This document shows positions 2,127 through 24,350 of a stretch of 64,000 nt of DNA, piece after piece (the stretch's first letter is position 1; each line of letters begins with the position of its first letter). The translations under genes were made by a program, and so were the position numbers. A model generated the notes under the pieces. That model saw nothing but the letters and a program-made list of their open reading frames with translations, was not told the origin of the DNA and ran no database searches. The DNA is from Alphaproteobacteria bacterium (GTDB taxonomy: Bacteria; Pseudomonadota; Alphaproteobacteria; RF32; CAG-239), in contig JAFUSA010000017.1 of NCBI GenBank assembly GCA_017480745.1, forward strand, positions 16,174-80,173, in the 5' to 3' direction.

Positions 2127-3140
2127 ATGCGTTGGAATGAAAATGTAGAGCGTTTCAAAAATAATCGACGTGCGGTTTGGTCCTTGTTTTTGTTTGTTAC
2201 AATATTTATTGTTTCCTTATTTTCAGAACTTATAGCAAATGATAGGCCTTTGGTCATAAAGTATAATAACAAAATATATTTTCCCGTTTTTTCTGATTTA
2301 AGTGATGTGTTTTTGGGTGGAGATTTTCCAACTTCGGCGGATTATGGTGATCGATTGATAATTAATAATATTCAATCATCAGGCGGGTGGATGATTAAAA
2401 CTCCGATAAATTATTCTTTTAACACTGTGGATTATTATTTGGATACACCGACCCCCTCTGCTCCGGATCATCAACATTGGCTGGGAACGGATGAAGAGGG
2501 GCGTGATGTGTTGGCACGTATTTTATATGGTGTAAGGTTATCAATAATTTTTGCTTTTTTACTGACTTTTATATCATCATTATTGGGTATATTTATCGGA
2601 GCCATACAGGGATATTTTGGCGGCAAAACAGATCTGTTTTTGCAACGTTTTATTGAAATATGGGACTCATTGCCTCAACTTTTTATTTTAATTATTATTG
2701 CCAGTGTGTTTTTACCAACATTTTGGAGTTTGCTAATTATATTGTTGTTGTTTTCTTGGACCGGATTAACCGGCATGGTGCGGGCGGAATTTTTGCGTTT
2801 GCGTAACTTCGAATTTGTTAAAGCAGCCAAGGTTTTGGGTGTTAGTGATTTTCGTATTATGTTTCGCCATATATTGCCAAATGCATTGGTAACCTCTATA
2901 ACATTTATTCCGTTTATTATGGCAGAAGCAATCACTGCATTGAGTGCGCTTGATTTTTTAGGTCTTGGATTACCGACTGATTATCCGTCATTAGGAGATT
3001 TGGTTCGTCAGGGAAAAGATAATCTGCATGCTCCGTGGATCGGGGTGAGCATTTTCATTGTTCTCTCCGGATTGCTTTCTATGTTGATATTCATAGGTGA
3101 GGGAATAAGAGATGCTTTTGATACAAGGAAAAATAAATGA
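2127..3140 (+). CDS. yejE: ABC transporter permease, YejE-like (oligopeptide/microcin C type)
   Basis: 337 aa. N-terminus NRRAVWSLFLF...ELIANDRPLVIKYNNKIYFPVF is typical of YejE. It has a BPD-transporter core and a 4-nt overlap with the next gene. Confidence 0.8.
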   Translation: MRWNENVERFKNNRRAVWSLFLFVTIFIVSLFSELIANDRPLVIKYNNKIYFPVFSDLSDVFLGGDFPTSADYGDRLIINNIQSSGGWMIKTPINYSFNTVDYYLDTPTPSAPDHQHWLGTDEEGRDVLARILYGVRLSIIFAFLLTFISSLLGIFIGAIQGYFGGKTDLFLQRFIEIWDSLPQLFILIIIASVFLPTFWSLLIILLLFSWTGLTGMVRAEFLRLRNFEFVKAAKVLGVSDFRIMFRHILPNALVTSITFIPFIMAEAITALSALDFLGLGLPTDYPSLGDLVRQGKDNLHAPWIGVSIFIVLSGLLSMLIFIGEGIRDAFDTRKNK

Positions 3141-4717
3141 ATATGCTAACAATCAAACATCTCTCGGTAAATTTCAAAAGCAAAAAAAATAATGATTTTC
3201 AAGCAGTTAAAGATGTTAATTTAAGTCTTGATACAGGGAAAATTCTTGGAATTGTAGGTGAATCCGGTTCAGGGAAGTCTGTAACCGCCTTATCAATATT
3301 GGGTTTGTTACCATATCCTAAGGCATATCATTCTAAAAACAGCTCTATTATCTTTAACAATCAAGAACTTATAGGACTATCTGAAAGTGAATTTCAAAAG
3401 ATACGTGGTAATCAGATTGCTTTTATATTTCAAGAGCCGATGTCATCTCTAAATCCTTTACATAAAATCGGTCACCAAATCGCTGAAAGTATTGAGATGC
3501 ATCAGCATTTAAGTCAGGCAGAAATAAAAAAACGAACACTAAATTTATTAAAACTCGTTAAAATACCGCATCCGCAGGAAAAAATAAATGCTTATCCGTT
3601 TGAGCTTTCCGGAGGTCAGCGCCAAAGAGTAATGATTGCAATGGCTATTGCTAATAATCCGCAAATTTTAATCGCCGATGAGCCGACAACAGCGCTGGAT
3701 GTTACTATTCAGGAACAAATAATAAATTTGTTATTGGAATTAAAGCAGAAAATAGGTATGTCTGTTATATTCATTAGTCATAATCTCCATTTGGTTCATA
3801 AAATAGCCGATGATATTGCTGTTATGTATAAGGGAGAATTAGTTGAATACGGTTCAGCCAAGCAAGTATTTGAAGCCCCTAACCATAGCTACACTAAAAA
3901 GTTAATAAACTCGGTTATGCCTTTGAATAAGGCTGATAATATTGATAAAAATATAGTTTTGAAAGCGGAAAAAATAAATGTTGCCTTTCCTTTGAAAAAA
4001 AATATATGGGGTAGGGTAATCGAGCAACTAAAAGCCGTAAACAATGTTAGCTTCAATTTAAAAACAGGAGAAACAATCGGTATTGTAGGTGAATCCGGTT
4101 CAGGTAAAACAACTTTGGCTATGTCTATTGTTAATTTAATAAAACACGATGGAAAAATATATGTAAAAAACAACAAGTTATTTAATGAAGTTAATTGCTT
4201 TAATAAAGATTTACAATTAGTTTTTCAAGATCCTTATAATTCACTCAATCCGCGTATGAATATTGCTGAAATTATTGGAGAAGGTTTGAATATTCATTAT
4301 AAAAATTTAAGCAAACAAGAAAAAACGGAAAAAATAATACGCATATTGAAAGAAGTTGAATTAGATGAAAGTGTTCTGAATAAATATCCGCACGAATTTT
4401 CCGGAGGTCAACGCCAAAGAATATCTTTGGCACGTGCTCTGATTTTGAATCCGCAAATAATTATATTAGATGAACCAACGTCGGCTTTAGATGTTACAGT
4501 GCAAGCACAAATAATAAAATTACTGAAACATTTGCAACAAAAACTTAAACTGTCTTATATTTTTATTTCGCACGATATGAATGCAATTAAAGCAATTTCG
4601 CACAGAGTTATGGTAATGAAAGACGGAAAAATAGTTGAACAAGGAACGGTAAAGCAGATTTTTCAAAGTCCGCGTCATAGTTACACTAAAAACCTGATTA
4701 AGGCTACAAAACTATAA
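3137..4717 (+). CDS. yejF: ABC transporter ATP-binding protein with two fused ATPase domains, YejF-like
   Basis: 526 aa. Two Walker A motifs (GESGSGKS, GESGSGKT), two LSGGQRQR signatures, two Walker B motifs (ILIADEPT, IIILDEPT). Confidence 0.85.
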   Translation: MNMLTIKHLSVNFKSKKNNDFQAVKDVNLSLDTGKILGIVGESGSGKSVTALSILGLLPYPKAYHSKNSSIIFNNQELIGLSESEFQKIRGNQIAFIFQEPMSSLNPLHKIGHQIAESIEMHQHLSQAEIKKRTLNLLKLVKIPHPQEKINAYPFELSGGQRQRVMIAMAIANNPQILIADEPTTALDVTIQEQIINLLLELKQKIGMSVIFISHNLHLVHKIADDIAVMYKGELVEYGSAKQVFEAPNHSYTKKLINSVMPLNKADNIDKNIVLKAEKINVAFPLKKNIWGRVIEQLKAVNNVSFNLKTGETIGIVGESGSGKTTLAMSIVNLIKHDGKIYVKNNKLFNEVNCFNKDLQLVFQDPYNSLNPRMNIAEIIGEGLNIHYKNLSKQEKTEKIIRILKEVELDESVLNKYPHEFSGGQRQRISLARALILNPQIIILDEPTSALDVTVQAQIIKLLKHLQQKLKLSYIFISHDMNAIKAISHRVMVMKDGKIVEQGTVKQIFQSPRHSYTKNLIKATKL

Positions 4718-4759: not shown

Positions 4760-4787
4760 ACTATACATAATATTCATTATGCGACAA
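4760..4787 (-). other. dif-like XerC/D recombination site (left prophage junction)
   Basis: Minus strand reads TTGTCGCATAA-TGAATA-TTATGTATAGT. 20 of 28 positions match E. coli dif GGTGCGCATAA-TGTATA-TTATGTTAAAT, including the inner CGCATAA / TTATGT half-sites. Confidence 0.6.
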
Positions 4788-4789
4788 AT
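4767..4789. repeat. Direct repeat, left copy (ATAATATTCATTATGCGACAAAT)
   Basis: Identical 23-mer at 13001-13023. Partial identity continues 3' (a GT dinucleotide and a further A match). Confidence 0.95.
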
Positions 4790-4964
4790 TGTAAACTCAC
4801 CCAATATATAAAATTATTGTATTTTAATAAGTTGCTCTATACTATCTAAGCTAATACTTTATTTTTTTAATTATTTTAATAATTCTTACGCAAAATAATT
4901 TTATTGCCTCTTCGCAATTTTTTATATACATATATAACAAAATAATTAAATAAGAGTTAATAAA

Positions 4965-5414
4965 ATGATTGATTATGAACAGATAAGTTATATAGAACAA
5001 TTGCTTTATAAAGCGTTGGATGATTTACAATATGCACTTGACGATTGCAATTTCAAAGAGATTTTGAATATGTCGCGAAAATATAAATACGAAAATAGTA
5101 TTTCATTGGATCACTACCTAACTGGACATAATAAAATGATGTGGAGACTATATACCTACCTTATCAATGGAATTCACACCGATGATGCTAAAAGAATGCT
5201 TTATCAGGAATTCCATCTTGAACCGATTATATGCACAAGGTTGGTTGATGACGTTTATGTCAGGCAACGCCGACAAATGATGCCAAATAAAATATACGCA
5301 GCGCACATGATGAAAAGAGCTGGTATAACAAATAAAAAAATCGCAACCGTCTTAGAAGTTTCATCATCTACGGTTGCTACATATTTAAAGGTTAATCTTA
5401 CAGTTAAAAATTAA
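4965..5414 (+). CDS. Prophage HTH DNA-binding protein (putative regulator)
   Basis: 149 aa. C-terminal helix-turn-helix KRAGITNKKIATVLEVSSSTVATYLK. It is the only plus-strand gene in the element. Confidence 0.55.
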   Translation: MIDYEQISYIEQLLYKALDDLQYALDDCNFKEILNMSRKYKYENSISLDHYLTGHNKMMWRLYTYLINGIHTDDAKRMLYQEFHLEPIICTRLVDDVYVRQRRQMMPNKIYAAHMMKRAGITNKKIATVLEVSSSTVATYLKVNLTVKN

Positions 5415-5779
5415 TTTTCACATATAGGTGTTAAATTGTATAAATCTCTTCGTGCTGGACGCCACCAATCCCATGAAAAATATTTTTCCGGAACATAAAA
5501 CAAATTAAATGGGTTTAATACCATAGGTGTATCAAATTCATAATCCGGATGCAAAATAGCAGTTTTACATCCTTTTTTACGCCCCTCTAATATTGTATTT
5601 TTAATTCCTTTATAAGGAAGCTTTGCTTGTGTATGATTTATGCCTTGAAGCTCATTATTCATGTATAAATCTGTATACTTTTCATAACTTAATAGTGTTA
5701 CAAGGTTTTTTGCGTCGTTTTCACTGTTGGCACATCCGAAAAGTGTTAAAACTGCCGCAATTAAATAAATTTTTTTCAT
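5411..5779 (-). CDS. Prophage-encoded lipoprotein (moron candidate)
   Basis: 122 aa. Lipobox MKKIYLIAAVLTLFGC. Own promoter-like TTGACT-17 nt-TACACT upstream at about 5812-5840. Confidence 0.6.
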   Translation of the reverse strand: MKKIYLIAAVLTLFGCANSENDAKNLVTLLSYEKYTDLYMNNELQGINHTQAKLPYKGIKNTILEGRKKGCKTAILHPDYEFDTPMVLNPFNLFYVPEKYFSWDWWRPARRDLYNLTPICEN

Positions 5780-5858
5780 ATTTATACACTCCTACAGAAA
5801 CTACTTCCAAGAGTGTATAAATATGTATTAAGAAAGTCAACACTAATTAATGACATTG

Positions 5859-6005
5859 TTAATCATTCCAGAAAGAATCCCAAAAAGAACGATGTTTTGC
5901 CTGTTTTTTGCCTCCTGTGCGCGTTGTTTTTCTTTTTGTAATAGTCTTTGTTTTACTAACTTTGCAACGCTTGGAAGCCGTTTTTCTTTTTCTATGTGTA
6001 GCCAT
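5859..6005 (-). CDS. 48-aa highly basic mini-protein (not in ORF track)
   Basis: Translated by hand: MATHRKRKTASKRCKVSKTKTITKRKTTRTGGKKQAKHRSFWDSFWND. SD is TAGGAGGGTAAT-ATG. Confidence 0.55.
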   Translation of the reverse strand: MATHRKRKTASKRCKVSKTKTITKRKTTRTGGKKQAKHRSFWDSFWND

Positions 6006-6006
6006 A

Positions 6007-6147
6007 TTACCCTCCTATCAATTTAATCAATTCAATCATAAAATCAGGCGCCGATAATGAACCGCCAACTAATCCGGCCAAAGCAGTTAAAACCCCTGCC
6101 CAAAACCCTTTATTTTTTACCTTTTCCTTTAATTCCGAAATATGCAT
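6007..6147 (-). CDS. 46-aa single-TM mini-protein (holin-like position)
   Basis: MHISELKEKVKNKGFWAGVLTALAGLVGGSLSAPDFMIELIKLIGG. SD is GGAGGGGAG. Its stop abuts the next gene's start. Confidence 0.5.
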   Translation of the reverse strand: MHISELKEKVKNKGFWAGVLTALAGLVGGSLSAPDFMIELIKLIGG

Positions 6148-6268
6148 CTATACTCCCCTCCAGCCGCGATAATCTTTCGTTCATATCCGATATTTTGCGC
6201 AGATACCATAACAGCACCACGAAAACAGGAGAATTTATCAACATTTGATTAAACAGCTCTTGTGTCAT
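6110..6268 (-). CDS. 52-aa single-TM mini-protein
   Basis: MTQELFNQMLINSPVFVVLLWYLRKISDMNERLSRLEGSIDAYFGIKGKGKK. Starts 4 nt after the upstream stop and overlaps the next mini-ORF in another frame. SD is weak. Confidence 0.4.
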   Translation of the reverse strand: MTQELFNQMLINSPVFVVLLWYLRKISDMNERLSRLEGSIDAYFGIKGKGKK

Positions 6269-6272
6269 ATCA

Positions 6273-6458
6273 TTATTTCTTTGTCAAAAGTTTGTAACCA
6301 AAGAATAAAGCCGCAGCCAATATAACATATTTACCGAAAGTTGCCTCCTTAGCGTCTTGCACTTCTTCTGCTTTGCTCTCTTTATACGAGTCAACTGCAT
6401 AATCTATTCCGATTGTTGCCAATATTGCACCGCCTAATTTTGCCAATGCTCCCCACAT
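6273..6458 (-). CDS. 61-aa two-TM mini-protein (holin-like)
   Basis: Internal start of the 100-aa track ORF: AAGGAGGTAAAA-ATG, MWGALAKLGGAILATIGIDYAV...VILAAALFFGYKLLTKK. Confidence 0.6.
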   Translation of the reverse strand: MWGALAKLGGAILATIGIDYAVDSYKESKAEEVQDAKEATFGKYVILAAALFFGYKLLTKK

Positions 6459-6468
6459 TTTTACCTCC

Positions 6469-6615
6469 TTACTTAAAAAATTTTTTATATACAAAATAGA
6501 TAATAATACCTTGCACGGCCGCGGCCGCCAAATTAAAAGCCGGCTGTGTGCTTTGCTTTTTATCCCAAATAGCAAAGCCTAACGCGCCGCCTAAAAAACT
6601 GACTAAATACCCCAT
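6469..6615 (-). CDS. 48-aa two-TM mini-protein
   Basis: MGYLVSFLGGALGFAIWDKKQSTQPAFNLAAAAVQGIIIYFVYKKFFK. SD is GTAGGAGATAATC-ATG. Directly downstream of the lysin. Confidence 0.55.
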   Translation of the reverse strand: MGYLVSFLGGALGFAIWDKKQSTQPAFNLAAAAVQGIIIYFVYKKFFK

Positions 6616-6624
6616 GATTATCTC

Positions 6625-7080
6625 CTACACATAAAAAACATGATTACCGATGGTTACAGTCTTTGTCATTGAAGCCGCCCAGTACGGCATAACAGATTTT
6701 GCATGATAATGTGTTGCCCCTCCGGTTATATCCTGTAATGTTCCGGCAATCGCTTGTTTAGCAATATTGAGCTCTGTTGCTAATTGTGCCGGAGTTGCCG
6801 CGATAATCTTTGCACGATTCGGATCATCCGTATTCCAACAGCTGAATTGATAAGGTTTTAAAACAACATCTTTTACACTAGCACCATACCATCCACCGGC
6901 TTTAACTCTATTCATTATCACATTTGCTACGGCCTGCATACCTTTTATTCCCTCGCCTCGTGCTTCGCCGTAAATTGTGCGTGCTAAATAATCTGCTTGG
7001 TCTTCCGTCATATCATATCCTTTTTTTAATAACCTATAACCTATATAAACTGCCCCTATTATTAAAAACGTTCTAAGCAT
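6625..7080 (-). CDS. Cell-wall hydrolase, SleB/Hydrolase_2 family, with N-terminal signal-anchor (endolysin)
   Basis: 151 aa. TM helix MLRTFLIIGAVYIGYRLL, then ARTIYGEARGEG...AVANVIMNRV...PYQFSCWN, typical of the SleB-type domain. Confidence 0.8.
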   Translation of the reverse strand: MLRTFLIIGAVYIGYRLLKKGYDMTEDQADYLARTIYGEARGEGIKGMQAVANVIMNRVKAGGWYGASVKDVVLKPYQFSCWNTDDPNRAKIIAATPAQLATELNIAKQAIAGTLQDITGGATHYHAKSVMPYWAASMTKTVTIGNHVFYV

Positions 7081-7083
7081 CGT

Positions 7084-7404
7084 TTAACCCTCTAATTCGT
7101 TAATCTCTGCCCGCCATCCTTGGCGTTTTGCAATAACATCAGCATATTGTTCAGCTGTTGCCGCACCCTCAGCGATTTTGATAATTGCATAATCTGTTTG
7201 TTGAAGTAATTTTTTTAACTCATTGATTCTGGATTGTTTAATTTTTTCTTCTATTGACCATGAATTTTTCACAACAGTGTAATATTCGCCTTGTTCTTCA
7301 ATATGATATTCCTGCCCATCATTACACCATTGGGCAACTTTGCTGTAATCCTCTTGTTTTTCCGATATATCTGTTTTTAATATTTTCCAATTGCTGTATG
7401 TCAT
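7084..7404 (-). CDS. 106-aa protein, possible fibre/spike assembly chaperone
   Basis: Start chosen at MTYSNWKIL (SD GGAGAAAATA). The C-terminal pattern ...AEQYADVIAKRQGWRAEINELE resembles tail-fibre assembly proteins. The position after the spike gene fits that role. Confidence 0.35.
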   Translation of the reverse strand: MTYSNWKILKTDISEKQEDYSKVAQWCNDGQEYHIEEQGEYYTVVKNSWSIEEKIKQSRINELKKLLQQTDYAIIKIAEGAATAEQYADVIAKRQGWRAEINELEG

Positions 7405-7415
7405 TATTTTCTCCA

Positions 7416-8015
7416 TCAGTAACCAATAGATATCCAATATCCGCCACCCTCACCGTAATTAGTAAGAGTAAACGAAGTTGTTGTTATTCCATTTATTGCG
7501 TCATTGTCATTCGTTCCGGAAGCGTTGTTGCGTGTAAATGTTACCACGCATCCGGTGGTAAATGGCATATGAAAATTATAAGTTCCACTTCCAGGAACTA
7601 ATCCCCATTGAATAATTATACCGTTACTCAATTTCATATAACCATATTGTCCAGTAACAGATGTTCCATTATTAGTTATGGGATAACCTAATCCTCCCTC
7701 CCCTCTAATTTGCGCCACACCTGTCGCATTATTAATTAACATTCCAATGGCATTGGTATTATATGATCCGTGCGGGTCATTTATGCTTGTTGGTAAAAAA
7801 TAAGTGTTATCACCATCATTTCTAATAAGAAAACCATATTTATTATATGAATCTATTGCTCTAAATTGAGCTGGGTTTTGAGCATTTGCTTGTACACTTA
7901 ATTCAGAATCAGTAAAAAATGTTTGATGTGTACTTGGTGTAAAAGTTTTTTGTCCATTAATCACTTGATTCCCAACCGTTCTGACTGAATTTATACCTCG
8001 CCCGACAAATCCCAT
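7416..8015 (-). CDS. Receptor-binding spike/fibre-like protein
   Basis: 199 aa. The motif GYMKLSNGIIIQWG...FHMPF is recurrent in the C-terminal knobs of phage fibre/spike proteins. SD is AGGAG. Confidence 0.55.
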   Translation of the reverse strand: MGFVGRGINSVRTVGNQVINGQKTFTPSTHQTFFTDSELSVQANAQNPAQFRAIDSYNKYGFLIRNDGDNTYFLPTSINDPHGSYNTNAIGMLINNATGVAQIRGEGGLGYPITNNGTSVTGQYGYMKLSNGIIIQWGLVPGSGTYNFHMPFTTGCVVTFTRNNASGTNDNDAINGITTTSFTLTNYGEGGGYWISIGY

Positions 8016-8027
8016 AATATCTTACTC

Positions 8028-8651
8028 CTAATAACCAATTGTGTAATTGTATGTACCGGCTGCTGTCACACTTATTTTTGATGGTAATGCAAGCGAACAA
8101 CTCCATGCTGCTCCCTCTGGCAATGTTAAACTACTGACTGCATAACTTTCACCAGATATATCAATCGTTACACTCCCTGCTGTAACCATTATATTAAAAT
8201 CGCATCCTCCAACATCGAAAAACTGACTTACAGAAGATACACCACCAACAAGATTATTTAATCTCACAGATTGCACGGGTAAAATTGAAGCAGCAGTCAC
8301 TGGTAAAGTTGAGGCTGCTGCAACATTTACAATACCTGAAACAGTTAATCGTGAATCTTTTATATCGCCGACACCGACAACAAAATGAGCAGTTATTTCA
8401 GAGTTGCTATCATTCCATAATTCTATAAATTCAACTGGTTCGGTTAACCTGTAACCTAAACCTGGTGTAAATGGTGTTTGAATCATTGTTCCACCAAAAG
8501 ATACTTTTAACGCATTTGGCTCAGAAACATCCAGAAGATGAAATGAATCCGTTACATAATCCAATTTAAAATGTTCGTTTTCTTTTAATGTTTTTGTGTA
8601 TTCCCAATACGGCGCTTGAGTCGAACCTAAATTAATTGTTTGTGCTACCAT
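8028..8651 (-). CDS. Virion structural protein (vertex/penton candidate)
   Basis: 207 aa, beta-rich, no TM. Ends ...YTIGY like the downstream spike, which ends ...ISIGY. Confidence 0.35.
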   Translation of the reverse strand: MVAQTINLGSTQAPYWEYTKTLKENEHFKLDYVTDSFHLLDVSEPNALKVSFGGTMIQTPFTPGLGYRLTEPVEFIELWNDSNSEITAHFVVGVGDIKDSRLTVSGIVNVAAASTLPVTAASILPVQSVRLNNLVGGVSSVSQFFDVGGCDFNIMVTAGSVTIDISGESYAVSSLTLPEGAAWSCSLALPSKISVTAAGTYNYTIGY

Positions 8652-9130
8652 TTTTTACCCCTAAAAATAAAATAAAAGATTGCCGCAATCATTGCATACA
8701 TTGCAATTGGTCTTATACCGTCAATTGTTCGCCGTAATTCGTCGTCACTTTCGGCATATGCCTGTGCGGTCGTATCCATTGCTTTTTCGGCTGAACTTTG
8801 AACACTTGAAACGGCTTTATCAAAAGTTTGCGACAATAACGATGAACTTTTATTGTAAAGCGTTTCTGCTGTTCCTAAAGCATCATAATTAAGTTTTCGT
8901 GCGGTTGTCATTGCATCTGAACTCAAAGTATTTACAGTCCCCAACAAGCTGTTTAAATTATCTCCGGTTATACCTTGCTCATTATATACAAGTGAACTGC
9001 CTGCGCCCAAAATCGTGTTGTCATGAGCAAGTGCACCAATTTCTGCGGCGTTGTTAATATCGGTTGAATTGTCTGTATATTGAGTTGTTGTGGAACTCGA
9101 TGATTTTGAATGTGAACTAAATAAACCCAT
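8645..9130 (-). CDS. Membrane-anchored virion protein (C-terminal TM)
   Basis: 161 aa. S/T-rich N-terminus, helical middle, C-terminal helix IAMYAMIAAIFYFIF. Confidence 0.4.
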   Translation of the reverse strand: MGLFSSHSKSSSSTTTQYTDNSTDINNAAEIGALAHDNTILGAGSSLVYNEQGITGDNLNSLLGTVNTLSSDAMTTARKLNYDALGTAETLYNKSSSLLSQTFDKAVSSVQSSAEKAMDTTAQAYAESDDELRRTIDGIRPIAMYAMIAAIFYFIFRGKKW

Positions 9131-9131
9131 T

Positions 9132-9401
9132 TTAACCTCTAACCTTACGAATCAACCAAAAACCCAAAAGAGCAACGCCTCCCCAAAGCAAAACCTGTTT
9201 AATAGATAAACTCGATGCACCACCCATGTTAAGTGTGTTGTTATGCACTCCCCAATCACGGCTAGACATACTCGATGCAGCACTTGAAGTTGCTGCTCCA
9301 AAATTATTCAAAAAATCATCAAGACCAATACTTGCTTCAATTTCCCCAATATATCCGCCTGTGTTTTGATTATTATCTTGGTTGCTTTGGTTTGATGCCA
9401 T
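9132..9401 (-). CDS. Small virion membrane protein (C-terminal TM)
   Basis: 89 aa. C-terminal helix LLWGGVALLGFWLI. Confidence 0.4.
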   Translation of the reverse strand: MASNQSNQDNNQNTGGYIGEIEASIGLDDFLNNFGAATSSAASSMSSRDWGVHNNTLNMGGASSLSIKQVLLWGGVALLGFWLIRKVRG

Positions 9402-9404
9402 AAC

Positions 9405-9656
9405 CTACCGCCTTTTCAGAACTGCCACTAGTAAAACCGTAATAATTGCCCCACCAGCAATCCATAACAGTGTTTTTTTATGCAAATCATACCCCAAAAA
9501 AGATAATGTTTCATCTTGCTGTTGTTGAGCCATTTCCAAAGCAGCCTGATTTGCTGACATGGTTACCTTTGAATTGAGTTTTGCTACATATAATCCGCCA
9601 GCAGTATTCGCTAACCATTGCCACCACCTTGTAGAATCTCCTGCATTATCTGCCAT
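9405..9656 (-). CDS. Small virion membrane protein (C-terminal TM)
   Basis: 83 aa. C-terminal helix LLWIAGGAIITVLLVAVL. SD is AAAGGGG. Confidence 0.4.
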   Translation of the reverse strand: MADNAGDSTRWWQWLANTAGGLYVAKLNSKVTMSANQAALEMAQQQQDETLSFLGYDLHKKTLLWIAGGAIITVLLVAVLKRR

Positions 9657-9671
9657 TGTTTACCCCTTTCA

Positions 9672-9700
9672 TGTAAAAGCAAGGCGGCGCACCGCCCTGC
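9672..9700 (-). terminator. GC-rich hairpin + U-run after the capsid candidate gene
   Basis: Minus-strand RNA GCAGGGCGG-UGCG-CCGCCUUGC followed by UUUUA. It stands out in AT-rich DNA. Confidence 0.55.
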
Positions 9701-9714
9701 CCGCTTTATAAACA

Positions 9715-10578
9715 CTATGCTGAAACTGCTTTTAACATAACTTCCGGCACGTTGCGAATAGATACAGCAATCAAGTCATATACACCGCTTGTCGGAGCTG
9801 TACCGAATGTCGTTTTTAAGCGTAATTCGGTTACACCCATCATTGGCAAAACACCTTTGATGCTACCATCGCTGAACGAATAATTAAAATTGCCTGAAAC
9901 AGCTGATAAACCGCGTGCATTAACAATATAATCATTAAGCGCTTGTGAAATCGGATCATAGATACTATTACCGTTTACGACACATTCTCCGCCGGTAATT
10001 GCCCCACCACCATTGTGTGCCAAGATTTCTAAGTACGCTTCGTTATTGTCTCGCGGTAATGTGTCAACTGTTGAAATACCAGTTGATGCCATTGTTTGCG
10101 GATAGTTGATTATTTTGATATATGAACCAAGTGCTTGCGCAGTTGAACGTCTAACAGTTGAAACCTGCAAATCCGTCAAACCGGTAACCGTTGAATTGCA
10201 ATAAACCTGTAATTGAATTGTTTGAATATTCGAACAGCCCCAAGCGAAAAAGTCTTCATTATTTGAATCCTTGAATAAATATCTTCCAATATTCAAACCC
10301 AAGCAATTTACAACATTTTGTGTAACTTCGACACCCAAAGATGAATAAACATCACACAAACGCGTGAATGGTACATTTATCACTTGTTCTCCGTTGATAT
10401 TTAATGCAACTTTACCAATACCGGATTTGATATTTGTCAAAGTTGCAGCCGCACCGCTATTAGTAAATTCCAATACTACGTCATCAATTGTGTCAAATGA
10501 TGGAATATTAAAGGTTAAAATTATACCCGCGGAAATCGGTTTACTTTCATGAACTAAAACTTTTTTTAATTGTGACAT
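9715..10578 (-). CDS. Major capsid protein candidate (jelly-roll type suspected)
   Basis: 287 aa, beta-rich, no TM. Lies immediately downstream of the ATPase module and upstream of the membrane mini-proteins, and is followed by a strong hairpin. The size is comparable to the PM2 capsid protein as I recall it. Confidence 0.5.
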   Translation of the reverse strand: MSQLKKVLVHESKPISAGIILTFNIPSFDTIDDVVLEFTNSGAAATLTNIKSGIGKVALNINGEQVINVPFTRLCDVYSSLGVEVTQNVVNCLGLNIGRYLFKDSNNEDFFAWGCSNIQTIQLQVYCNSTVTGLTDLQVSTVRRSTAQALGSYIKIINYPQTMASTGISTVDTLPRDNNEAYLEILAHNGGGAITGGECVVNGNSIYDPISQALNDYIVNARGLSAVSGNFNYSFSDGSIKGVLPMMGVTELRLKTTFGTAPTSGVYDLIAVSIRNVPEVMLKAVSA

Positions 10579-10590
10579 AGTACCCCCCTA

Positions 10591-10680
10591 TTAATCATTC
10601 TTGGATGTTGCTTGTCTGATGTATTGATATACATAAATTCCGGCCACCACTCCGGCCATAATTTTTAATAGGCTTTTCAT
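10591..10680 (-). CDS. 29-aa TM peptide (not in ORF track)
   Basis: MKSLLKIMAGVVAGIYVYQYIRQATSKND. SD is GGGAGAAG. Confidence 0.35.
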   Translation of the reverse strand: MKSLLKIMAGVVAGIYVYQYIRQATSKND

Positions 10681-10795
10681 TGTCTTCTCCCTGCTATAAA
10701 AAATAAAACCTACGTAAACATTACATAGGCTTTATTTTGTGTGCAAATGCGGCTTTTTCTACATATATATGTATATATATGTTATGTAAAAAATT

Positions 10796-11428
10796 TCATG
10801 CAACTATTCCTTGTTCATTTTTGTAATAATATTTATAGTTTTGCAGGTTCAGGATACCTCCTTTATATGGTGTACCTAACATTGAGATTGCTGTTTTAAC
10901 ATCATTCCAATCAGCTAAGCGAAAAATATATAAATCCGATAAATTTGCACGAAAAGGCATATCAACCAAGCTCATACGCTGTGAGACGCCGATAAGGTTA
11001 ACGCCGTAATGCCTGCCTTGGTTGCATAAAAAGCCGAATCCGTTATCAGGCTTTTTACGTGTTAAACCAAGAGGAAAACTCAGATTTAATTCATCAACAA
11101 AAAGCGTTATTTTTGCATTGTGTTGCTGAATTTTAAATCCTGTTTGTAACTCTCTTATAAATTTACTTAAATCTGATAAAGCTTTTATTTCTGAGCCATA
11201 CGGCGGTACATATGCTACTCGAAAACCTTTAACATAATTTTTGATTAAATAACTTTTCAAATCATCAAGAGATGTAAAACGGCGAAATTTACCAACAAAA
11301 TCATCCAGCGCATCAAAAACAATTAAACGTTGACATTTTGCAACCAATGTTAATGCTTTAGTTGTTTTACCGCTTCCGGATGCCCCAAAAATTCCAACCC
11401 GCCGACTATCTGTTATCTGTTTTTTCAT
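10796..11428 (-). CDS. P-loop ATPase, candidate genome-packaging ATPase (FtsK-HerA/A32-like or Zot-like N-domain)
   Basis: 210 aa from ATG 11428 (SD AAGGTG). Walker A GASGSGKTT, Walker B TLFVDE, later GRHYGVNLIGVSQR. No TM segment. Confidence 0.6.
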   Translation of the reverse strand: MKKQITDSRRVGIFGASGSGKTTKALTLVAKCQRLIVFDALDDFVGKFRRFTSLDDLKSYLIKNYVKGFRVAYVPPYGSEIKALSDLSKFIRELQTGFKIQQHNAKITLFVDELNLSFPLGLTRKKPDNGFGFLCNQGRHYGVNLIGVSQRMSLVDMPFRANLSDLYIFRLADWNDVKTAISMLGTPYKGGILNLQNYKYYYKNEQGIVA

Positions 11429-11942
11429 CTTTTTCACCTTTGCCAAAAAATTTACTCATAAAGCTATTTTCTTTTACTTGCTCACTGGATTTTTTCATAA
11501 ATTTGTGAACATATCCGCTTAATCCATTACCAGTAAAGCGTTTGCATGCAATATTTGCTTTGGCACCGACAAAACAAGAGATTGCAATCATATCACCAAA
11601 CCAACCGCCGCATGGCTCGATTAAGAAATGCATCATTTTGTATTTTTGGGCCATCATATACAGCTTGGCAGCTGATACTTTCGCACCTGCAAATTCAAAC
11701 GGTTTATCTTTTTGCACCTTAAAATCGGGCATATCCCATAAATCGCTGCATATATCAAATAATTCAATAAAATGCTGTTCAAATTGTTCTGGTGTTAAAA
11801 TGCCGACAGGATCCTGTGCGTTTTTTTGTTCTTCTTCCATTTTGGCTGCTATTACTGATTTTTCAATATTTTCTGCAAATTCTGCCGCTTGTTTGCTTGT
11901 CATATTTGCTCCATCATCTAAAATTACATTTTCTTCTGACAT
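11406..11942 (-). CDS. Prophage protein of unknown function
   Basis: 178 aa from ATG 11942. Acidic N-terminus and a cysteine-containing hydrophobic core. Overlaps the ATPase start. Confidence 0.4.
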   Translation of the reverse strand: MSEENVILDDGANMTSKQAAEFAENIEKSVIAAKMEEEQKNAQDPVGILTPEQFEQHFIELFDICSDLWDMPDFKVQKDKPFEFAGAKVSAAKLYMMAQKYKMMHFLIEPCGGWFGDMIAISCFVGAKANIACKRFTGNGLSGYVHKFMKKSSEQVKENSFMSKFFGKGEKDEKTDNR

Positions 11943-11963
11943 ATTTTTACCTTTCAAAAAAAA

Positions 11964-12236
11964 TTAAATATCTAAATCTTCTTCAAGATCATCACGTTTG
12001 CACGGTTGATTTATTTGCAAATTATCCTTAACTGCGCTAATTATACCGACTTTTTCCAAACATACGGCATGGCCGCGACGTAAAGTGGCTAAAGCAATCC
12101 GACTATATTTGCTATTTAATTGCCATTTACATCCATTATCGCAATAGCAATAAATCTTATTATTTTTGTTGACTTTCACATCTTGAAATTGTTCACCACA
12201 CACTGGACATGTTGCTCGCCCCACAATTTCCCCCAT
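11964..12236 (-). CDS. Zinc-ribbon protein
   Basis: 90 aa. CPVCGEQ...CYCDNGC. SD is AGGAGG. Confidence 0.5.
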   Translation of the reverse strand: MGEIVGRATCPVCGEQFQDVKVNKNNKIYCYCDNGCKWQLNSKYSRIALATLRRGHAVCLEKVGIISAVKDNLQINQPCKRDDLEEDLDI

Positions 12237-12247
12237 TTTATAACCTC

Positions 12248-12931
12248 CTAAAATTGTATATTAACTTCATTTAACCCATGTGTATTATAGTCATATGCTA
12301 TAATTTCACGATTGCACTTATCATTAAAGAAATTTTTAATTTCCGCCTCTGTAATAGCATCACGCATTGAAGCCGATAGTGGCCGAAAGCCTAAACACCC
12401 CCTTCCAGTCTTAAAAAAATTATAATTTTTTGCTTGCTTTACTGCCTCGTAACATGAAAGAATATCGTTTACATCCATCATGTCTACAACAGGCGCTACT
12501 TTGTTATTTGTTTGGCTATTCGCGCGCACACGTGCGCGCTGTTTTATAAAATTTAAATTTATATTTTTGTTTAAATGATTATTGTTCGATATGCCATCCG
12601 TGTCACTATGTAGTGACTCTGATGGCGCATTCCCCTGTGACAAATTTGCCACAGGGGAATCAGGTTCTAATCTCAAATAATAACCGTTTGACGAATAACC
12701 TCCATCATCACGTAAACGTTTTTCACGAGCTATAACACGACAAGCCTCTAATTTGGATAAACTGCGAAAAACGCTACGTCTACTGATACCACACTCATCT
12801 GCTATGCGAGAAACAGATGGAAAACAAAACCCATCTTCGTTTGCGAATCCTTGTATTGATAAATAAACTCTTATATCAACACTGCTTAAATCCTTATTTT
12901 TATAAACTTTTTTTGGACAAATTGAAAACAT
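12248..12931 (-). CDS. Winged-HTH replication-initiator-like protein
   Basis: 227 aa. N-terminal wHTH ...VYLSIQGFANEDGFCFPSVSRIADECGISRRSVFRSLSKLEACRVI resembles DnaD/plasmid Rep-type initiators. First gene of the leftward operon. Confidence 0.5.
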   Translation of the reverse strand: MFSICPKKVYKNKDLSSVDIRVYLSIQGFANEDGFCFPSVSRIADECGISRRSVFRSLSKLEACRVIAREKRLRDDGGYSSNGYYLRLEPDSPVANLSQGNAPSESLHSDTDGISNNNHLNKNINLNFIKQRARVRANSQTNNKVAPVVDMMDVNDILSCYEAVKQAKNYNFFKTGRGCLGFRPLSASMRDAITEAEIKNFFNDKCNREIIAYDYNTHGLNEVNIQF

Positions 12932-12993
12932 AGATACCCCCTTTTCAGGTGAGTATTTACGGATTTATTTATCTGATATTTTCCTTATTTTGT

Positions 12994-13021
12994 GGATAAT
13001 ATAATATTCATTATGCGACAA
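12994..13021 (-). other. Second dif-like site (right prophage junction), outer arm differs
   Basis: Minus strand reads TTGTCGCATAA-TGAATA-TTATATTATCC. The XerC-like arm and centre are the same as at 4760-4787. The XerD-like arm is different. Confidence 0.55.
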
Positions 13022-13023
13022 AT
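13001..13023. repeat. Direct repeat, right copy
   Basis: Identical to 4767-4789. Confidence 0.95.
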
Positions 13024-13417
13024 AGTGAGATACGCGTTTTAAGTCTTTTTATACAAAATTATGGCTATCTATTCTTCCGGTTCTATTTAGCTTATATTCT
13101 TCTGGTGCCGGTGCTGATATAGAAGCACCGGCAGAAACATTATAATTATTTGTATTTGATGAAAAATTGACAATCTCCATTGCAATCACAAGCAGTTGTT
13201 GCTTTATCAATCGGCATCGGAACGGAAATATTTTTACCGTTAGGACATGCAATAGATTGTCCTGTATCTGTGCTACCATCGCATCCAACAATGCCTTTTT
13301 TCTTGCCGATAATTCCTAAATATAAAACAAAAAAAGCTTTTTATAGTAGTAAAAAGCAATAATACAAAACACCCGATTTTTCAACCGAGTGTTTCTGTTC
13401 AACTATTATGAATTTAA

Positions 13418-13792
13418 TTACTTCAATTCAACTTTAGCTCCGGCTTCTTCCAACTTAGCTTTCATAGCGTCGGCATCAGCTTTGGCTACACTTTCTTTAA
13501 CAGTCTTCGGAGCGCCTTCTACCAAGTCTTTAGCTTCTTTCAAACCTAAACCTGTAATAGCGCGAACTTCTTTAATTACATTGATTTTGTTTGCACCGGC
13601 TTCAACCAATACAACATCAAATTCAGTTTTTTCTTCAGCGGCGGCTGCACCAGCAGCAGCTCCGGCACCGGCTACGGCAACAGCGGCAGCGGCGGAAACG
13701 CCCCATTTTTCTTCTAACATTTTTGATAATTCAGCAGCTTCCATAACTGTTAAAGCTGACAACTCATCTACTAATTTGGCCAAATCTGCCAT
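13418..13792 (-). CDS. rplL: 50S ribosomal protein L7/L12
   Basis: [32 protein letters not shown]...[16 protein letters not shown]...[11 protein letters not shown]. The start is trimmed from the longer track ORF. Confidence 0.95.
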
Positions 13793-13851
13793 TTTTTTTC
13801 TCCAATTAAAAAAATTAACTTTACAAATTAAATACAAAAACTGTTTTGCTA

Positions 13852-14334
13852 TTAAGCAGCTTCTTTTTCGCTATAAGCTTTGCAAACTCTTGCCATTTTA
13901 GCAGCAGGAGCTTGTAACAAGCCAACAAGTTTAGCACGCAATTCATCCATAGAAGGAATAGCAGCCAACTCTTTGATTTCGGCAATGGTTAATACTTTAT
14001 CTGATAAAGCACCACCCATAATAACCAATTTTTCATTTTCCTTAGCGAACTCAACACAAGCTTTGCAAGCGGCAATCGGATCGCTGGCATATGCTAATGC
14101 AATAGGACCTTTGAATAATTCCGTCAAGCCTTCAAATTTTGTGCCTTTTAATGCTAAACGAGCAATACGGTTTTTAGTAACTCTTAAAGAAGCGCCGGTT
14201 TCGCGAATCTTTTTTCTTAATGCTTCTGTCTCTGCAACTGTTAAGCCGATATATTCAGCAACAACCACAGACTCAGCACTCGAAAATATTCCGTTCAATT
14301 CACCGAGCAACTCTGTTTTTTCTTCGCGGTTCAC
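13852..14334 (-). CDS. rplJ: 50S ribosomal protein L10
   Basis: 160 aa, GTG start. ...[40 protein letters not shown]. Confidence 0.9.
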
Positions 14335-14600
14335 TTATTGTCTCCAAACGAATTGTTAAATTCCCACACCAAAAAATTATCAGCGCAAGAACTGTTACCA
14401 AACCCACACTTCCCTTTTTTAAAGGAAAACATGGAACCCAAATCTGTCCGAGGAGAAAAAGATTATAAAAAAATCAAATTCACTTTAGTCTGCGCAGGAT
14501 ATTAAGAACAAGGAAAACCTTTATCACCCGCGGTCTTGGACAGCAATGAATATGCTTTAACAGCACTCATTGACGGCATATATAAAACAATTAAAAAACG
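14335..14600 (-). promoter_or_regulatory. Long 5' UTR of rplJL (putative L10 autoregulatory leader) with upstream TTGACA/TATATA promoter
   Basis: About 270 nt lie between a sigma70-like promoter (TTGACA-16/17 nt-TATATA near 14585-14613, minus strand) and the rplJ GTG. Confidence 0.35.
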
Positions 14601-14693
14601 ATGTCAAGTCATAAAATACGTTTTGTGCAATTTTTTTAAACCAATTTTGCTTAGTGATGGGTAAGTGAAAAAAATAGGAACTATTTGCTTGTC

Positions 14694-15119
14694 TTAATTT
14701 CCGCCGAGCTTGGCTTTTAAAGATTTTAATTCGTTTATTGCGTCGGATATTTCTTTAAGTGCGTTACGGTCAAGCGACTTGTTTACGATATTTTCATCTG
14801 ATACAGCAATTTCTTCGTTAGGATTCGTAAAAAAGTCTTTTTGGATCTCCGTATCTCCAAGAAGCTTTTTTAGTCCCCTCTCCTTTATTAAATGTTGGGC
14901 GCCCTCAATAGTATATCTGCTACCATAAAGCAGACCTTTTATGAGTTTAAGGACCTCCACATCATCCGGACGATAATAACGCCGTCCGCCACTTGCTTTC
15001 ATTGGACGTATCTGATTAAATTTAGTTTCCCAAAAGCGCAAAACATGCGTCGCTACCCCAAGTTCCTCTGCAACTTCGGCAATAGTCTTAAACGCAGATT
15101 TCGACTTATTTACAACCAT
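14694..15119 (-). CDS. MerR-family transcriptional regulator
   Basis: 141 aa. [30 protein letters not shown]...[14 protein letters not shown]. Confidence 0.75.
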
Positions 15120-15125
15120 TTATAT

Positions 15126-15422
15126 TTACTTTTTACCTTTTTTATTTACTGCCTGACGCAAAATTTGCGAAGGTTTAAATGAAATAACTGTCCGCGGAGT
15201 AATTTCAGCTTCCTCACCGGTTTTAGGGTTGCGCCCCATTCTGGCCTTTTTTTCACGCAAGGCGAAAGTTCCAAATGAAGATATTTTAACATCGTTACCG
15301 GCAATTAACTCAGAACGAATTTCCTCAATAATCATATCCAACACATCGCCGGAATCTTTACGTGAAAGTCCGATTTCTTCATAAATAGCCTCTGTGATGT
15401 TAACCTTGGTTACAGTTTTCAT
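15126..15422 (-). CDS. ihfA: Integration host factor subunit alpha
   Basis: MKTVTKVNITEAIYEEIGLSRKDSGDVLD...FGTFALREKKARMGRNPKTGEEAEITPRTVISFKPS. Confidence 0.85.
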   Translation of the reverse strand: MKTVTKVNITEAIYEEIGLSRKDSGDVLDMIIEEIRSELIAGNDVKISSFGTFALREKKARMGRNPKTGEEAEITPRTVISFKPSQILRQAVNKKGKK

Positions 15423-15527
15423 TTTATCATTCCCAAACACTAAACATTATATACTACTAAGAGCATATAATACGAGGCGGCATAAAACAAAACCTCTTTA
15501 ATTAAATATTCACAATTTTTTTTAATT

Positions 15528-16658
15528 TTATGCTATAAATGATTTGATAAAACGCGGATTTTTACCTAAACGTGACAATAATTCATAACTTATGGTTCCG
15601 GCATCACGCGCCACATCATCCAAAGTATATTCATCAAACACAAAATGGGCAAAATCCCCTACTTCAACACCTTTAACGTCTGTGACATCACAAATTATGT
15701 TATCCATAGAAACACGGCCGATTATCCGAGCCTCGCACCAACGTGAAGACGATTTGAAAAATGCCTTCCCTACATTAGAAAGTGAGCGTGGTAAACCATC
15801 TCCGTAACCGATTGATATTATCGCTATTTTTCTATTTGTTCCCGCACGATAGGTTGCCGAATAACCTACAAAATCTCCTTTGGGTAGATCTGCAACTTGC
15901 AAAACAGGAGCTTTTAAGGTTATTATATTTTGCATTTGATTAGGGCGATACGGAGCAGTATTTATTCCATACATTGCTGCTCCCAAACGCACCATATCAC
16001 AACAAAAATCTTTTCCTAAAAATGCACCGTCGGAAGCCGAAAGTGAAGCCGGTAAATCAGGAAAATATTTTTTCCTTATATTTTTGAAAGTGTTTAATTG
16101 TTTTTCATTCATAAAGTGGTCTTTTTCATCAGCACACGCTAAATGACTCATTACAAGAGAAAAATTACGGCAATCTTTTGTGCTTAAACGCTGTAAATCG
16201 CTTTCACGAAAACCTAAACGATTAAGCCCTGTTTCAACGTGAATAACCGGACGAATCCCTTCTATCTGATGTTTTTTCCAAAAATGCCACATTTCCGGCG
16301 AAATGATTACCGGCACAAACTTATATTTTTGAAACAAGGATAAACTATCCGCCCCTATTCCCTGCAAAACAAATATACGCGCATCGGGAACAGATTTTAC
16401 TATTTTTTCTCCCTCTACGGCATGAGCAACCCAAAAATTACGACAATCAGCTTGTTCGTAAAGAGTTTTTGCCACCTTCTCGGCTCCCAAACCGTATGCG
16501 TCATCTTTCACCACAGCCGAAGGCATGGCAGGATCTATGATTTTTTCTAACAATTTATAATTGGCGACCAACCGTTTCAGACTGATTTCCATCACCGGTT
16601 GTGTAAAAATTTTGTTATCTGCTCTTGTAAAAATATTCATAACTGTTATTATCTCCAT
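15528..16658 (-). CDS. alr: Alanine racemase
   Basis: 376 aa. PLP-lysine region AVVKDDAYGLGAEKVAKTL. C-terminal ...GTISYELLSRLGKN. Confidence 0.8.
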   Translation of the reverse strand: MEIITVMNIFTRADNKIFTQPVMEISLKRLVANYKLLEKIIDPAMPSAVVKDDAYGLGAEKVAKTLYEQADCRNFWVAHAVEGEKIVKSVPDARIFVLQGIGADSLSLFQKYKFVPVIISPEMWHFWKKHQIEGIRPVIHVETGLNRLGFRESDLQRLSTKDCRNFSLVMSHLACADEKDHFMNEKQLNTFKNIRKKYFPDLPASLSASDGAFLGKDFCCDMVRLGAAMYGINTAPYRPNQMQNIITLKAPVLQVADLPKGDFVGYSATYRAGTNRKIAIISIGYGDGLPRSLSNVGKAFFKSSSRWCEARIIGRVSMDNIICDVTDVKGVEVGDFAHFVFDEYTLDDVARDAGTISYELLSRLGKNPRFIKSFIA

Positions 16659-16676
16659 AGCAAAGGATTAAAAAAA

Positions 16677-17417: not shown

Positions 17418-17418
17418 T

Positions 17419-18633: not shown

Positions 18634-18706
18634 AAACATCGAAAAATATTTACCTCAATCTTTAATTAAAAAAATTGCGCCAAGAATCGCCGTTATCTAT
18701 CAAAAA

Positions 18707-18738
18707 CAAAGCGCTTTTCATATAAGAAAAGCGCTTTG
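18707..18738. terminator. Bidirectional hairpin between hydF and nfeD
   Basis: CAAAGCGCTTTT-loop-AAAAGCGCTTTG. Confidence 0.6.
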
Positions 18739-18758
18739 TCAGACATAATGAATATAAT

Positions 18759-19202: not shown

Positions 19203-19204
19203 TT

Positions 19205-20137: not shown

Positions 20138-20315
20138 TTTGACTTTCCTTTCATAATTTGTTCGTGATTTTAACAGAGTTAATAATACACATTTTAGCGA
20201 AATAATCAAGGAAAAAATGTATTTAAGTATAAAAAAACATATGTTAGACGCTTTTCTTGATACAAAAAAATTTCCCTCTGTAAGCTCTTATGCTTACGGA
20301 GGGAAAATACTTACA

Positions 20316-21455: not shown

Positions 21456-21725
21456 AATTGTAAAATTTTTAAGGGCACTCTCTGGTTTCCGACAGAGGTA
21501 ATTTGGTTAAGCCGTCAGGGAAACATGATAAAATCATACAGACGACTCCTCACATCAAATTAATTCAATATTCGGCCAAACCTCTTATCGTCAACTTTGA
21601 GCAGAACTCAAATCAACAACATAGATATTTAACTTAATAATTTACCATAATTTTTTGTAAGTAATTTTACCATACAACAATTTTTTTCTTTTGTCAATAG
21701 ATTTAACAAACTCGCTGATAAAATT

Positions 21726-21752: not shown

Positions 21753-21774
21753 TGCAATGTCAAAAAATTAAAGC

Positions 21775-24348: not shown

Positions 24349-24350
24349 CG

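Follow-up and report, generated by a model that had tools for sequence, protein, structure and literature searches.

How does a prophage that encodes no integrase come to lie at one exact point of a bacterial chromosome? The question is raised by a 64,000-nucleotide (nt) stretch of an uncultured alphaproteobacterial genome (contig JAFUSA010000017.1; the whole stretch is hereafter called the window), in which a phage-like insert separates yejF from rplL and is bounded by two sites resembling dif, the chromosomal site of dimer resolution. An initial annotation of the window attributed the insert to Xer-mediated integration at a probable replication terminus and likened it to CTX/VGJ-type integrative mobile elements exploiting Xer recombination (IMEXs). 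We consider it very probable that the 28-bp site beside yejF is the dif of the host and that a PM2-like phage was inserted there through XerC and XerD, the recombinases of the host.

The flanking sites and their recombination partners

Both flanking sites have the 11-6-11 layout of dif, two 11-bp arms around a 6-bp spacer. Read on the minus strand, they share the XerC-like arm and the spacer and differ in the XerD-like arm alone; on the plus strand the left site (attL) reads ACTATACATAATATTCATTATGCGACAA and the right site (attR) GGATAATATAATATTCATTATGCGACAA. Of the 28 positions of the left site, 20 agree with E. coli dif (7 in the XerC arm, 5 in the spacer and 8 in the XerD arm). Within the two sites lies a 23-bp direct repeat, reported by the repeat finder as the pair 4767-4792 and 13001-13026 (25 of 26 nt identical, 23 nt of them exact) at a spacing of 8,234 bp. 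On recomputation, the repeat, the dif-layout sites with their coordinates, the shared arm and spacer and the 20-position match were all as the initial annotation had given them. A loose core of the site (CGCATAA-N6-TTATG, at most one mismatch) occurs in the 64-kb window at attL and attR only; about 0.9 matches are expected by chance, two or more were found in 24 of 100 shuffles, and the motif alone is not significant in AT-rich DNA. The pair stands beyond chance because the 23-mer repeat is exact and because a matching empty site and an attP junction are present on other contigs.

Contigs from other samples were gathered by exact RplL protein, by exact YejF protein or by the phage replication (Rep) protein. 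Among those with the exact RplL, two carry the prophage (L005, L006) and six do not (L004, L007-L009, L011, L013). Each of these prophage-free, conspecific metagenome contigs has a single uninterrupted TTGTCGCATAATGAATATTATGTATAGT (attB) between yejF and rplL, together with a pilS-like gene or its remnant, as the initial annotation had predicted for relatives lacking the prophage, and this site is identical to attL at 28 of 28 positions.

The fourth partner was found at the start of a contig retrieved with the Rep protein (L102), where both inner ends of the prophage are joined across TTGTCGCATAATGAATATTATATTATCC: the yejF-proximal inner end (…GGGTGAGTTTACAAT) is followed by TTGTCGCATAATGAATATTATATTATCC and then by the rplL-proximal inner end (ACAAAATAAGG…). 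This junction is the attP of a circular or tandem form. Compared with the host site, it matches at 11 of 11 positions in the XerC arm, 6 of 6 in the spacer and 6 of 11 in the XerD arm. In the four-way alignment, attL consists of the left part of attB and the right part of attP, and attR of the left part of attP and the right part of attB, around a shared core of 23 bp. The two flanking sites are exactly the reciprocal products of attB and attP. The right site is thus made of the chromosomal XerC-like arm, the common spacer and a degenerate XerD-like arm brought in by the phage, and the proposed topology, with the chromosomal XerD-like arm at the left and the shared XerC-like arm at the right, is supported. 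On another prophage contig (L101), the base directly outside the XerC-like arm differs (…ACAAG|TTGTCG), and identity beyond the 28-mer is therefore incidental. A larger element with its integrase outside the window, a case that the initial annotation had allowed for, is ruled out by the exact boundaries of the insert in the same alignment.

As judged from these alignments, insertion of an integrase-less prophage by site-specific recombination into a dif-like site is strongly supported.

Conservation of the target site

The closest homologues of the host YejF among species-representative genomes belong to metagenome-assembled genomes (MAGs) labelled Rhodospirillaceae or Alphaproteobacteria (59-73% identity), at least two of which are of rumen origin by label (RUG772, yak omasum). 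The host is an uncultured low-GC gut or rumen alphaproteobacterium, and HydF in the window suggests an anaerobe. The scan did not recover the source species itself (best match 73%), and it yielded five orthologous sites.

In these five closest species, a 28-mer site lies directly downstream of yejF. Its XerC-like arm, TTGTCGCATAA, is invariant. Three species have TTATGTATAGT as the XerD-like arm, and the remaining two have TTATGCATACT and TTATGTATCTA, respectively (8-11 of 11 positions matching). The 6-bp spacer varies, being TGAATA, TATATA, TGTATA, TGTTTA or TCTATA. Conserved arms around a species-specific spacer are the pattern reported for dif (PMC2731167). The two-arm combined score is 19-22 of 22 in the five species; loci of more distant organisms, about 1.2 Mb in all, score 17 of 22 at best. 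When compared with published dif arms (sequences from PMC2731167), the XerC-like arm matches those of Mesorhizobium and Agrobacterium at 9 of 11 positions, and the XerD-like arm those of Caulobacter at 10 of 11 and R. sphaeroides at 9 of 11. On this pattern, the 28-bp site appears to be dif-like and under selection. Two distinct arms in an 11-6-11 arrangement point to a XerC/XerD two-recombinase system rather than XerS, XerH or XerA, single-recombinase systems that use other sites (PMC5357621). A clade dif could accordingly be written as TTGTCGCATAA-N6-TTATGTATAGT, which would be useful to orient or close MAGs and to find other IMEXs.

The 21-nt core of the site, ATAATATTCATTATGCGACAA, had no exact match in IMG/VR. 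It was present on five unrelated metagenome contigs (L094-L098), some of them GC-rich, one of which is Clostridia-like and carries a XerC-like recombinase gene about 3 kb from the core. These are probably dif-like sites of other taxa with the same arm and spacer. As the contigs are unrelated and the matches are coincidence or dif-like sites of their own, they were discarded as evidence on the element.

The prophage encodes a PM2-like capsid protein and no recombinase

The features of the prophage and its flanks are listed in Table 1. The Pfam P2_C score of the putative capsid protein is borderline (24.9 bits against a cut-off of 25), and a sequence search of the PDB gave double-jelly-roll (DJR) proteins as non-significant matches only (E = 0.03-0.25), which made structure prediction necessary. 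An AlphaFold2 (AF2) model built from an alignment of 13 homologues had a mean predicted local distance difference test (pLDDT) score of 81. In a Foldseek search of the PDB, its top match was PM2 P2 (2vvf, E = 1e-14, template modelling (TM) scores 0.76/0.81), followed by the capsid proteins of PBCV-1, STIV and PRD1. Because the capsid model best matches PM2 P2, the element is identified as a PM2-like (Vinavirales-type) tailless DJR double-stranded DNA (dsDNA) phage and not a filamentous one. Other features of PM2-like phages are present as well: an ATPase of the FtsK/HerA superfamily, a small unit size and small open reading frames (ORFs). Further ORFs between the repeats encode a lipoprotein and several proteins of 46-161 aa, a number of which look hydrophobic on visual inspection.

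Table 1 Predicted features of the prophage and its chromosomal flanks (window coordinates)
Feature	Position	Strand	Remarks
yejF	3137..4717	+	Left chromosomal flank, last gene of plus-strand block; NF011713 E = 1e-188
attL, intact 28-bp dif-like site	4760..4787	-	TTGTCGCATAA-TGAATA-TTATGTATAGT; XerD-like arm chromosomal, toward yejF
23-bp exact direct repeat, left copy	4767..4789	.	Contains the crossover
Prophage body	4790..13000	-	Inserted unit 8,234 bp; limits from attB/attP/attL/attR alignment
149-aa all-helical protein with C-terminal helix-turn-helix (HTH)	4965..5414	+	Terminal gene, opposite in direction to the other phage genes
Endolysin, SleB/Hydrolase_2 type	6625..7080	-	PF07486 E = 1.3e-26; phrog_938
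Spike or receptor-binding protein, tail-fibre-like C-terminal domains	7416..8015	-	Pfam/PHROG scans
DJR major capsid protein, 287 aa	9715..10578	-	PF25513 P2_C, AF2 model, Foldseek
Packaging ATPase, FtsK/HerA-A32 type, P-loop	10796..11428	-	phrog_2666 E = 1.7e-16; weak Pox_A32 and DUF87
Replication initiator, winged-helix (HTH_36, DnaD/O-like)	12248..12931	-	PF13730 E = 1e-12; phrog_270 and others; terminal, adjoins attR
attR, hybrid site	12994..13021	-	TTGTCGCATAA-TGAATA-TTATATTATCC
23-bp exact direct repeat, right copy	13001..13023	.	Repeat finding and att alignment
pilS-like gene remnant, deleted	about 13049-13291		Between attR and rplL
rplL	13418..13792	-	Right chromosomal flank, first intact gene of minus-strand block; profile and contig comparison

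The absence of an integrase, asserted from the outset, was upheld. No integrase, transposase or resolvase catalytic domain was detected in the element when its 17 longest ORFs and three small ones were scanned against Pfam and PHROG. A tblastn search for tyrosine recombinases, with an E. coli XerD sequence and a tyrosine recombinase from contig L098 as queries, found no match in the 64-kb window or in contigs L001-L023.

The 149-aa terminal protein is, by its position, a candidate regulator or Xer accessory factor. TLCphi requires XafT, a DUF3653 protein (PMC6744903, PMC9226527, PMC5357621), and in the dif-type DJR phages of Vibrio and Pseudoalteromonas a P16/RstR-P15/XafT module flanks attP (PMC12715192). 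DUF3653 was detected neither in the element (no match at E <= 1 for 10 ORFs or at E <= 0.01 for the remaining scanned ORFs) nor in the terminal proteins of related phages, nor among 20 homologues of the 149-aa protein searched with Pfam; PM2 P15 itself did score as DUF3653 when scanned alongside. Between the 149-aa protein and PM2 P15, BLASTP was negative and hhalign gave a probability below 2%. The model of the 149-aa protein (pLDDT 92) consists of long helices and a C-terminal HTH, and Foldseek searches of the PDB and BFVD returned no significant neighbour beyond generic matches to the C-terminal HTH. Its identification as XafT was rejected on these results.

The 149-aa protein is kept at the same terminus in related phages (33% identity to the protein of the L112 phage) and is a positional analogue of P15, no more. 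Its family comprises 25 cluster representatives at E <= 0.001, mostly of about 135-160 aa; the C-terminal HTH is common to the 20 short members that were aligned, and the N-terminal two-thirds matched no named family or structural neighbour.

Related phages at dif-like sites in other hosts

Homologues of the capsid protein form 215 clusters, none with a functional name. The contigs that carry them are in many cases 8.0-8.6 kb long; the others are long, and the few that are named are Alphaproteobacteria, 'Azospirillum sp. 47_25' and Acetobacter. A tblastn search of 50,697 GenBank phage records with the capsid protein gave no match, and a pattern-based scan of IMG/VR found no relative. The analysis thus reveals a large family of phages of about 8 kb with no relative in GenBank phages or IMG/VR by the scans made.

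In three further host backgrounds (L106/L109, L112 and L113-L116), phages with capsid proteins 62-77% identical to that of the window lie between a full dif-like site and a one-armed hybrid; which flank is chromosomal in these three hosts is presumed. In three of four cases the two junctions have identical spacers, as expected of tyrosine-recombinase crossover within the spacer; in L112 they differ at one base.

The P0076 phages (L106 and L109; 69% capsid identity) adjoin a yejF homologue. In L109, the junction on the yejF side is TTGTCGCATAA-TATATA-TTATGTATAAA and that on the other side TTGTCGCATAA-TATATA-TGTTGTGATTC, the same topology as in the window. In L106, the junctions are …CCCGTTTTT-TATATA-TTATGTATAAA and TTGTCGCATAA-TATATA-TTATGCGAACA. 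The two prophages (L106, 6985-15530; L109, 6914-15570) have the same chromosomal flanks and a phage core that is 98% identical, and they differ in their att-proximal modules, lie in opposite orientation and have the good attP arm on opposite positions. Because the host spacer TATATA is palindromic, no orientation would be imposed at this site.

The L112 phage (77% capsid identity) lies at a different chromosomal locus, between TTGTCGCATAA-TATATG-TTAAGCTCAAA and TTGTCGCATAA-TATATA-TTATGTATAGT; the single-base spacer mismatch is on the XerD side and recalls VGJphi. In L113-L116 (62% capsid identity, adjoining adk), the junctions are TATACATAA-GATAAA-GTTTATCACAC and AGTATTCATAA-GATAAA-TTATGCGACAA, with the degenerate arm at the XerC position. 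No recombinase gene was found in any phage examined, these relatives included. On the sequences of these junctions, the phage family appears to target dif-like sites generally, with a one-armed attP of either polarity.

Two hexapeptide-repeat transferase genes (151 and 150 aa; 6506-6961 and 14529-14981) with a 30-nt exact repeat in common flank the L112 prophage; one copy is apparently inside the element, where it may represent cargo or else a duplicate of a gene next to the target.

Chromosomal context and population evidence

Gene orientation around the site is as initially described. To the left, the window joined to upstream DNA of contig L001, with which it is identical where the two overlap, shows ten consecutive plus-strand genes over 11.6 kb. 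Of the 16 ORFs to the right (13049 to 28522), 14 are on the minus strand. The same convergence is seen at the orthologous site in two related species (L014, L017). In a 62.6-kb composite from which the prophage was removed in silico, the cumulative G-C maximum falls 107 bp from the site. The initial annotation had also suggested looking for a switch in the polarity of FtsK-orienting polar sequences (KOPS): all four KOPS-like GGGNAGGG motifs are directed at the site (one from the left, three from the right), and an unbiased search for polar 6- and 7-mers returned coding-strand words only. The convergence of genes, the local skew peak and the four motifs are consistent with the proposal that the site lies at the replication terminus, the skew following the coding strand as described below. 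A location at the terminus is plausible, unproven.

In most bacteria, rplJ-rplL is followed by rpoB-rpoC. Here the rplJ-rplL operon (13418-14334) is not, and a terminator-like hairpin closes it, a few hundred bp away from dif.

Between rplL and dif, some strains have an intact pilS-like gene of 221 aa with a PilS domain (PF08805, type IV pilin-like; L004, 10797-11462). A deletion of about 813 bp affects this gene in the window (13022-13420), L011 and L013. All four combinations of prophage presence or absence with an intact or deleted pilS-like gene occur (L104 and the window with the prophage, L004 and L011 without it), which implies repeated integration or excision, or recombination. In strains that keep the intact gene, about 300 bp of structured-looking non-coding DNA lies before it (L004, 10490-10790); owing to the deletion in the pilS region, this DNA is missing from the window.

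Proposed mechanism and alternative explanations

In the mechanism that we favour, the 28-bp site adjoining yejF would be the chromosomal dif, and the phage attP a mimic of it with the XerC-like arm and spacer of the host and a degenerate XerD-like arm. XerC and XerD of the host, the presumed enzymes, would recombine attP with dif. Integration would leave an intact dif on the yejF side, so that dimer resolution could continue. The hybrid site on the rplL side would be crippled, and by analogy with TLCphi and the gonococcal island, FtsK-driven excision would be limited and the prophage stabilised. Recombination between the flanking sites would yield a circular phage and a clean dif.

As to the order of strand exchange, we give about an even chance to a route that starts with XerC, independent of FtsK, and is completed by XerD or by replication. 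A route that starts with XerD, driven by FtsK or an unrecognised phage activator, is a tentative second choice. The slight lean to XerC comes from the perfect XerC arm, the XerD-side mismatch of L112 and the failure to find a XerD activator. It is also conceivable, if rather doubtful, that this widespread, undescribed phage lineage hijacks Xer without XafT, the conserved terminal coiled-coil and HTH protein of about 140-150 aa being a new and unrelated factor for Xer activation or synapsis or the one-armed attP with a perfect spacer sufficing by itself, and that opposite-armed relatives insert oppositely at a palindromic spacer.

Several observations weigh against insertion into dif by XerC/XerD as set out here. 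The arms were assigned by similarity, and invariance is found in the one called XerC, whereas proteobacterial dif sites generally conserve the XerD arm better (PMC2731167). No host XerC, XerD or FtsK gene lies within the 64-kb window. No XafT/DUF3653 activator was found, so that a TLC-like XerD-first route would operate without its known factor. The attP junction on L102 includes just 29 nt of one phage end, at the contig start, and could equally be explained by a tandem prophage array instead of a free circle. On either side of the site, the coding strand has a GC skew of about +0.17 (range about +0.15 to +0.2). Since plus-strand genes to the right of the site skew positive like those to the left, the skew reflects the coding strand and not the direction of replication; it adds little beyond gene orientation, and was rejected as independent evidence for the terminus.

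The arm assignment bears on the strongest of the alternatives, in which Xer is used with the arms reversed: the shared arm, TTATGCGACAA when read in the flipped orientation, would bind XerD, and the degenerate arm of attP would be the XerC arm. Exchange on the XerD side with a poor XerC site would set the chemistry apart from that of TLCphi and the gonococcal island. The invariance of the shared arm extends across nine host sites, the flipped orientation retains the A that is conserved at position 25 (PMC2731167), and the good attP arm of L106 and L113 is in the opposite position. The dif of Magnetospirillum, which as listed in PMC2731167 has TTATGCGACAA at the XerD position, and that of Bartonella fit the flipped orientation better (22 and 21 of 28). 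By contrast, the dif sites of E. coli, Agrobacterium, Mesorhizobium, R. sphaeroides, Rickettsia and Ehrlichia favour the orientation of the initial annotation, and the Bartonella entry, once flipped, agrees with the other Rhizobiales, so the table probably lists some sites on the opposite strand. We regard reversed arms as improbable.

We hold it considerably less probable still that the 28-mer is no dimer-resolution site and merely resembles dif as the attachment site of another host tyrosine recombinase or of an unrecognised phage enzyme. The enzymes and the terminus location are presumed ones, Jorvik-like phages are reported with a dif-like attB at variable genomic places (PMC10589892), and the L112 and L113 prophages do not adjoin yejF. 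This explanation is hard to reconcile with the exact 11-6-11 layout of two distinct arms matching published alphaproteobacterial XerC and XerD arms, with the conservation of those arms around a variable spacer in five species at a point of gene convergence, with the single intact copy per locus and with the lack of an encoded recombinase in the whole set of phages. An old, immobile insertion, that is, a decaying cryptic prophage whose repeats are remnants and which undergoes no Xer recombination today, is the least credible explanation, because, even though the prophage is present on all ten contigs with the exact YejF protein, its genes are all intact and in conserved synteny on the different contigs, the site is occupied in some and empty in other strains with identical RplL, either condition is found with either state of the pilS-like gene, and an attP-type junction occurs on a metagenome contig.

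Comparison with known Xer-exploiting elements

Several features of IMEXs are found here: a host dif and a hybrid site as bounds, a single dif-like attB and no self-encoded recombinase. IMEX classes are defined by their attP (PMC5357621). That of CTXphi is folded single-stranded DNA (ssDNA) with two inverted sites, that of VGJphi a duplex with spacer mismatches on the XerD side, and that of TLCphi has a XerC arm and spacer matching dif and a divergent XerD arm (PMC5357621). The gonococcal island has dif on one side and on the other a dif-like site, in which a degenerate XerD arm blocks FtsK-dependent excision (PMC6744903).

Like CTXphi and VGJphi, the present element is an integrase-less phage that would enter dif through host XerC/XerD. 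The likening of attP to the CTX/VGJ type in the initial annotation did not hold up. Unlike the folded two-site attP of CTXphi, there is a single duplex site here, and arm matches in the window are limited to attL and attR; unlike VGJphi, with its spacer mismatches, TGAATA is identical at 6 of 6 positions in attP and attB. CTXphi and VGJphi are both filamentous inoviruses, which by the capsid model and Foldseek the present element is not: its predicted virion type, DJR, is paired with a dsDNA genome in PM2 and relatives.

From the arm-by-arm matches given above, the attP is best described as a design of the TLCphi and gonococcal-island type: its XerC arm and entire central region agree with dif, and its XerD arm is degenerate, with five of 11 positions deviating (eight in TLCphi). 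Unlike TLCphi, a filamentous satellite of Vibrio cholerae, and the gonococcal island, which spans 57 kb, the element of the window is an icosahedral dsDNA phage; XafT, needed by TLCphi, was not detected in it.

The nearest counterparts are dif-type DJR phages, which have been described as IMEXs (PMC9966536, PMC10589892, PMC12715192); those compared here are the NO16-like 'Asemoviridae', PM2 and Cr39582 (Vibrio, Pseudoalteromonas) and Rhodobacter phage Jorvik. Like them, the present phage is small (8-10 kb) and tailless, with a DJR capsid protein, an FtsK/HerA-type ATPase and no integrase; its attP is dif-like, and integration leaves dif and a hybrid site, with one junction regenerating dif. 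Its relatives have the good arm on either side, as in the 'left-armed' and 'right-armed' attP of Vibrio phages. It differs from them in its host, an uncultured low-GC anaerobic gut or rumen alphaproteobacterium; in the winged-helix initiator, where PM2 has a rolling-circle nickase; and in its termini, at which the 149-aa HTH protein and the replication initiator take the place of the terminal P16/RstR and P15/XafT (DUF3653) pair. Of its relatives, L106, L109 and L113 carry a Cro/CI-type HTH gene at the other terminus.

Proposals or descriptions of DJR phages that exploit Xer date back to 2023 (PMC9966536, PMC10589892, PMC11630473, PMC12715192), and the principle is not new. What is new here is the host clade and a phage lineage without the known activation factor. 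The locus supplies a complete set of attB, attP, attL and attR for a dif-integrating tailless phage outside marine Gammaproteobacteria and Rhodobacter, and the missing XafT homologue raises the testable question of how Xer is activated. If the proposal for opposite-armed relatives at a palindromic spacer is true, these phages would form a natural system for asking which half-site and which recombinase starts the reaction.

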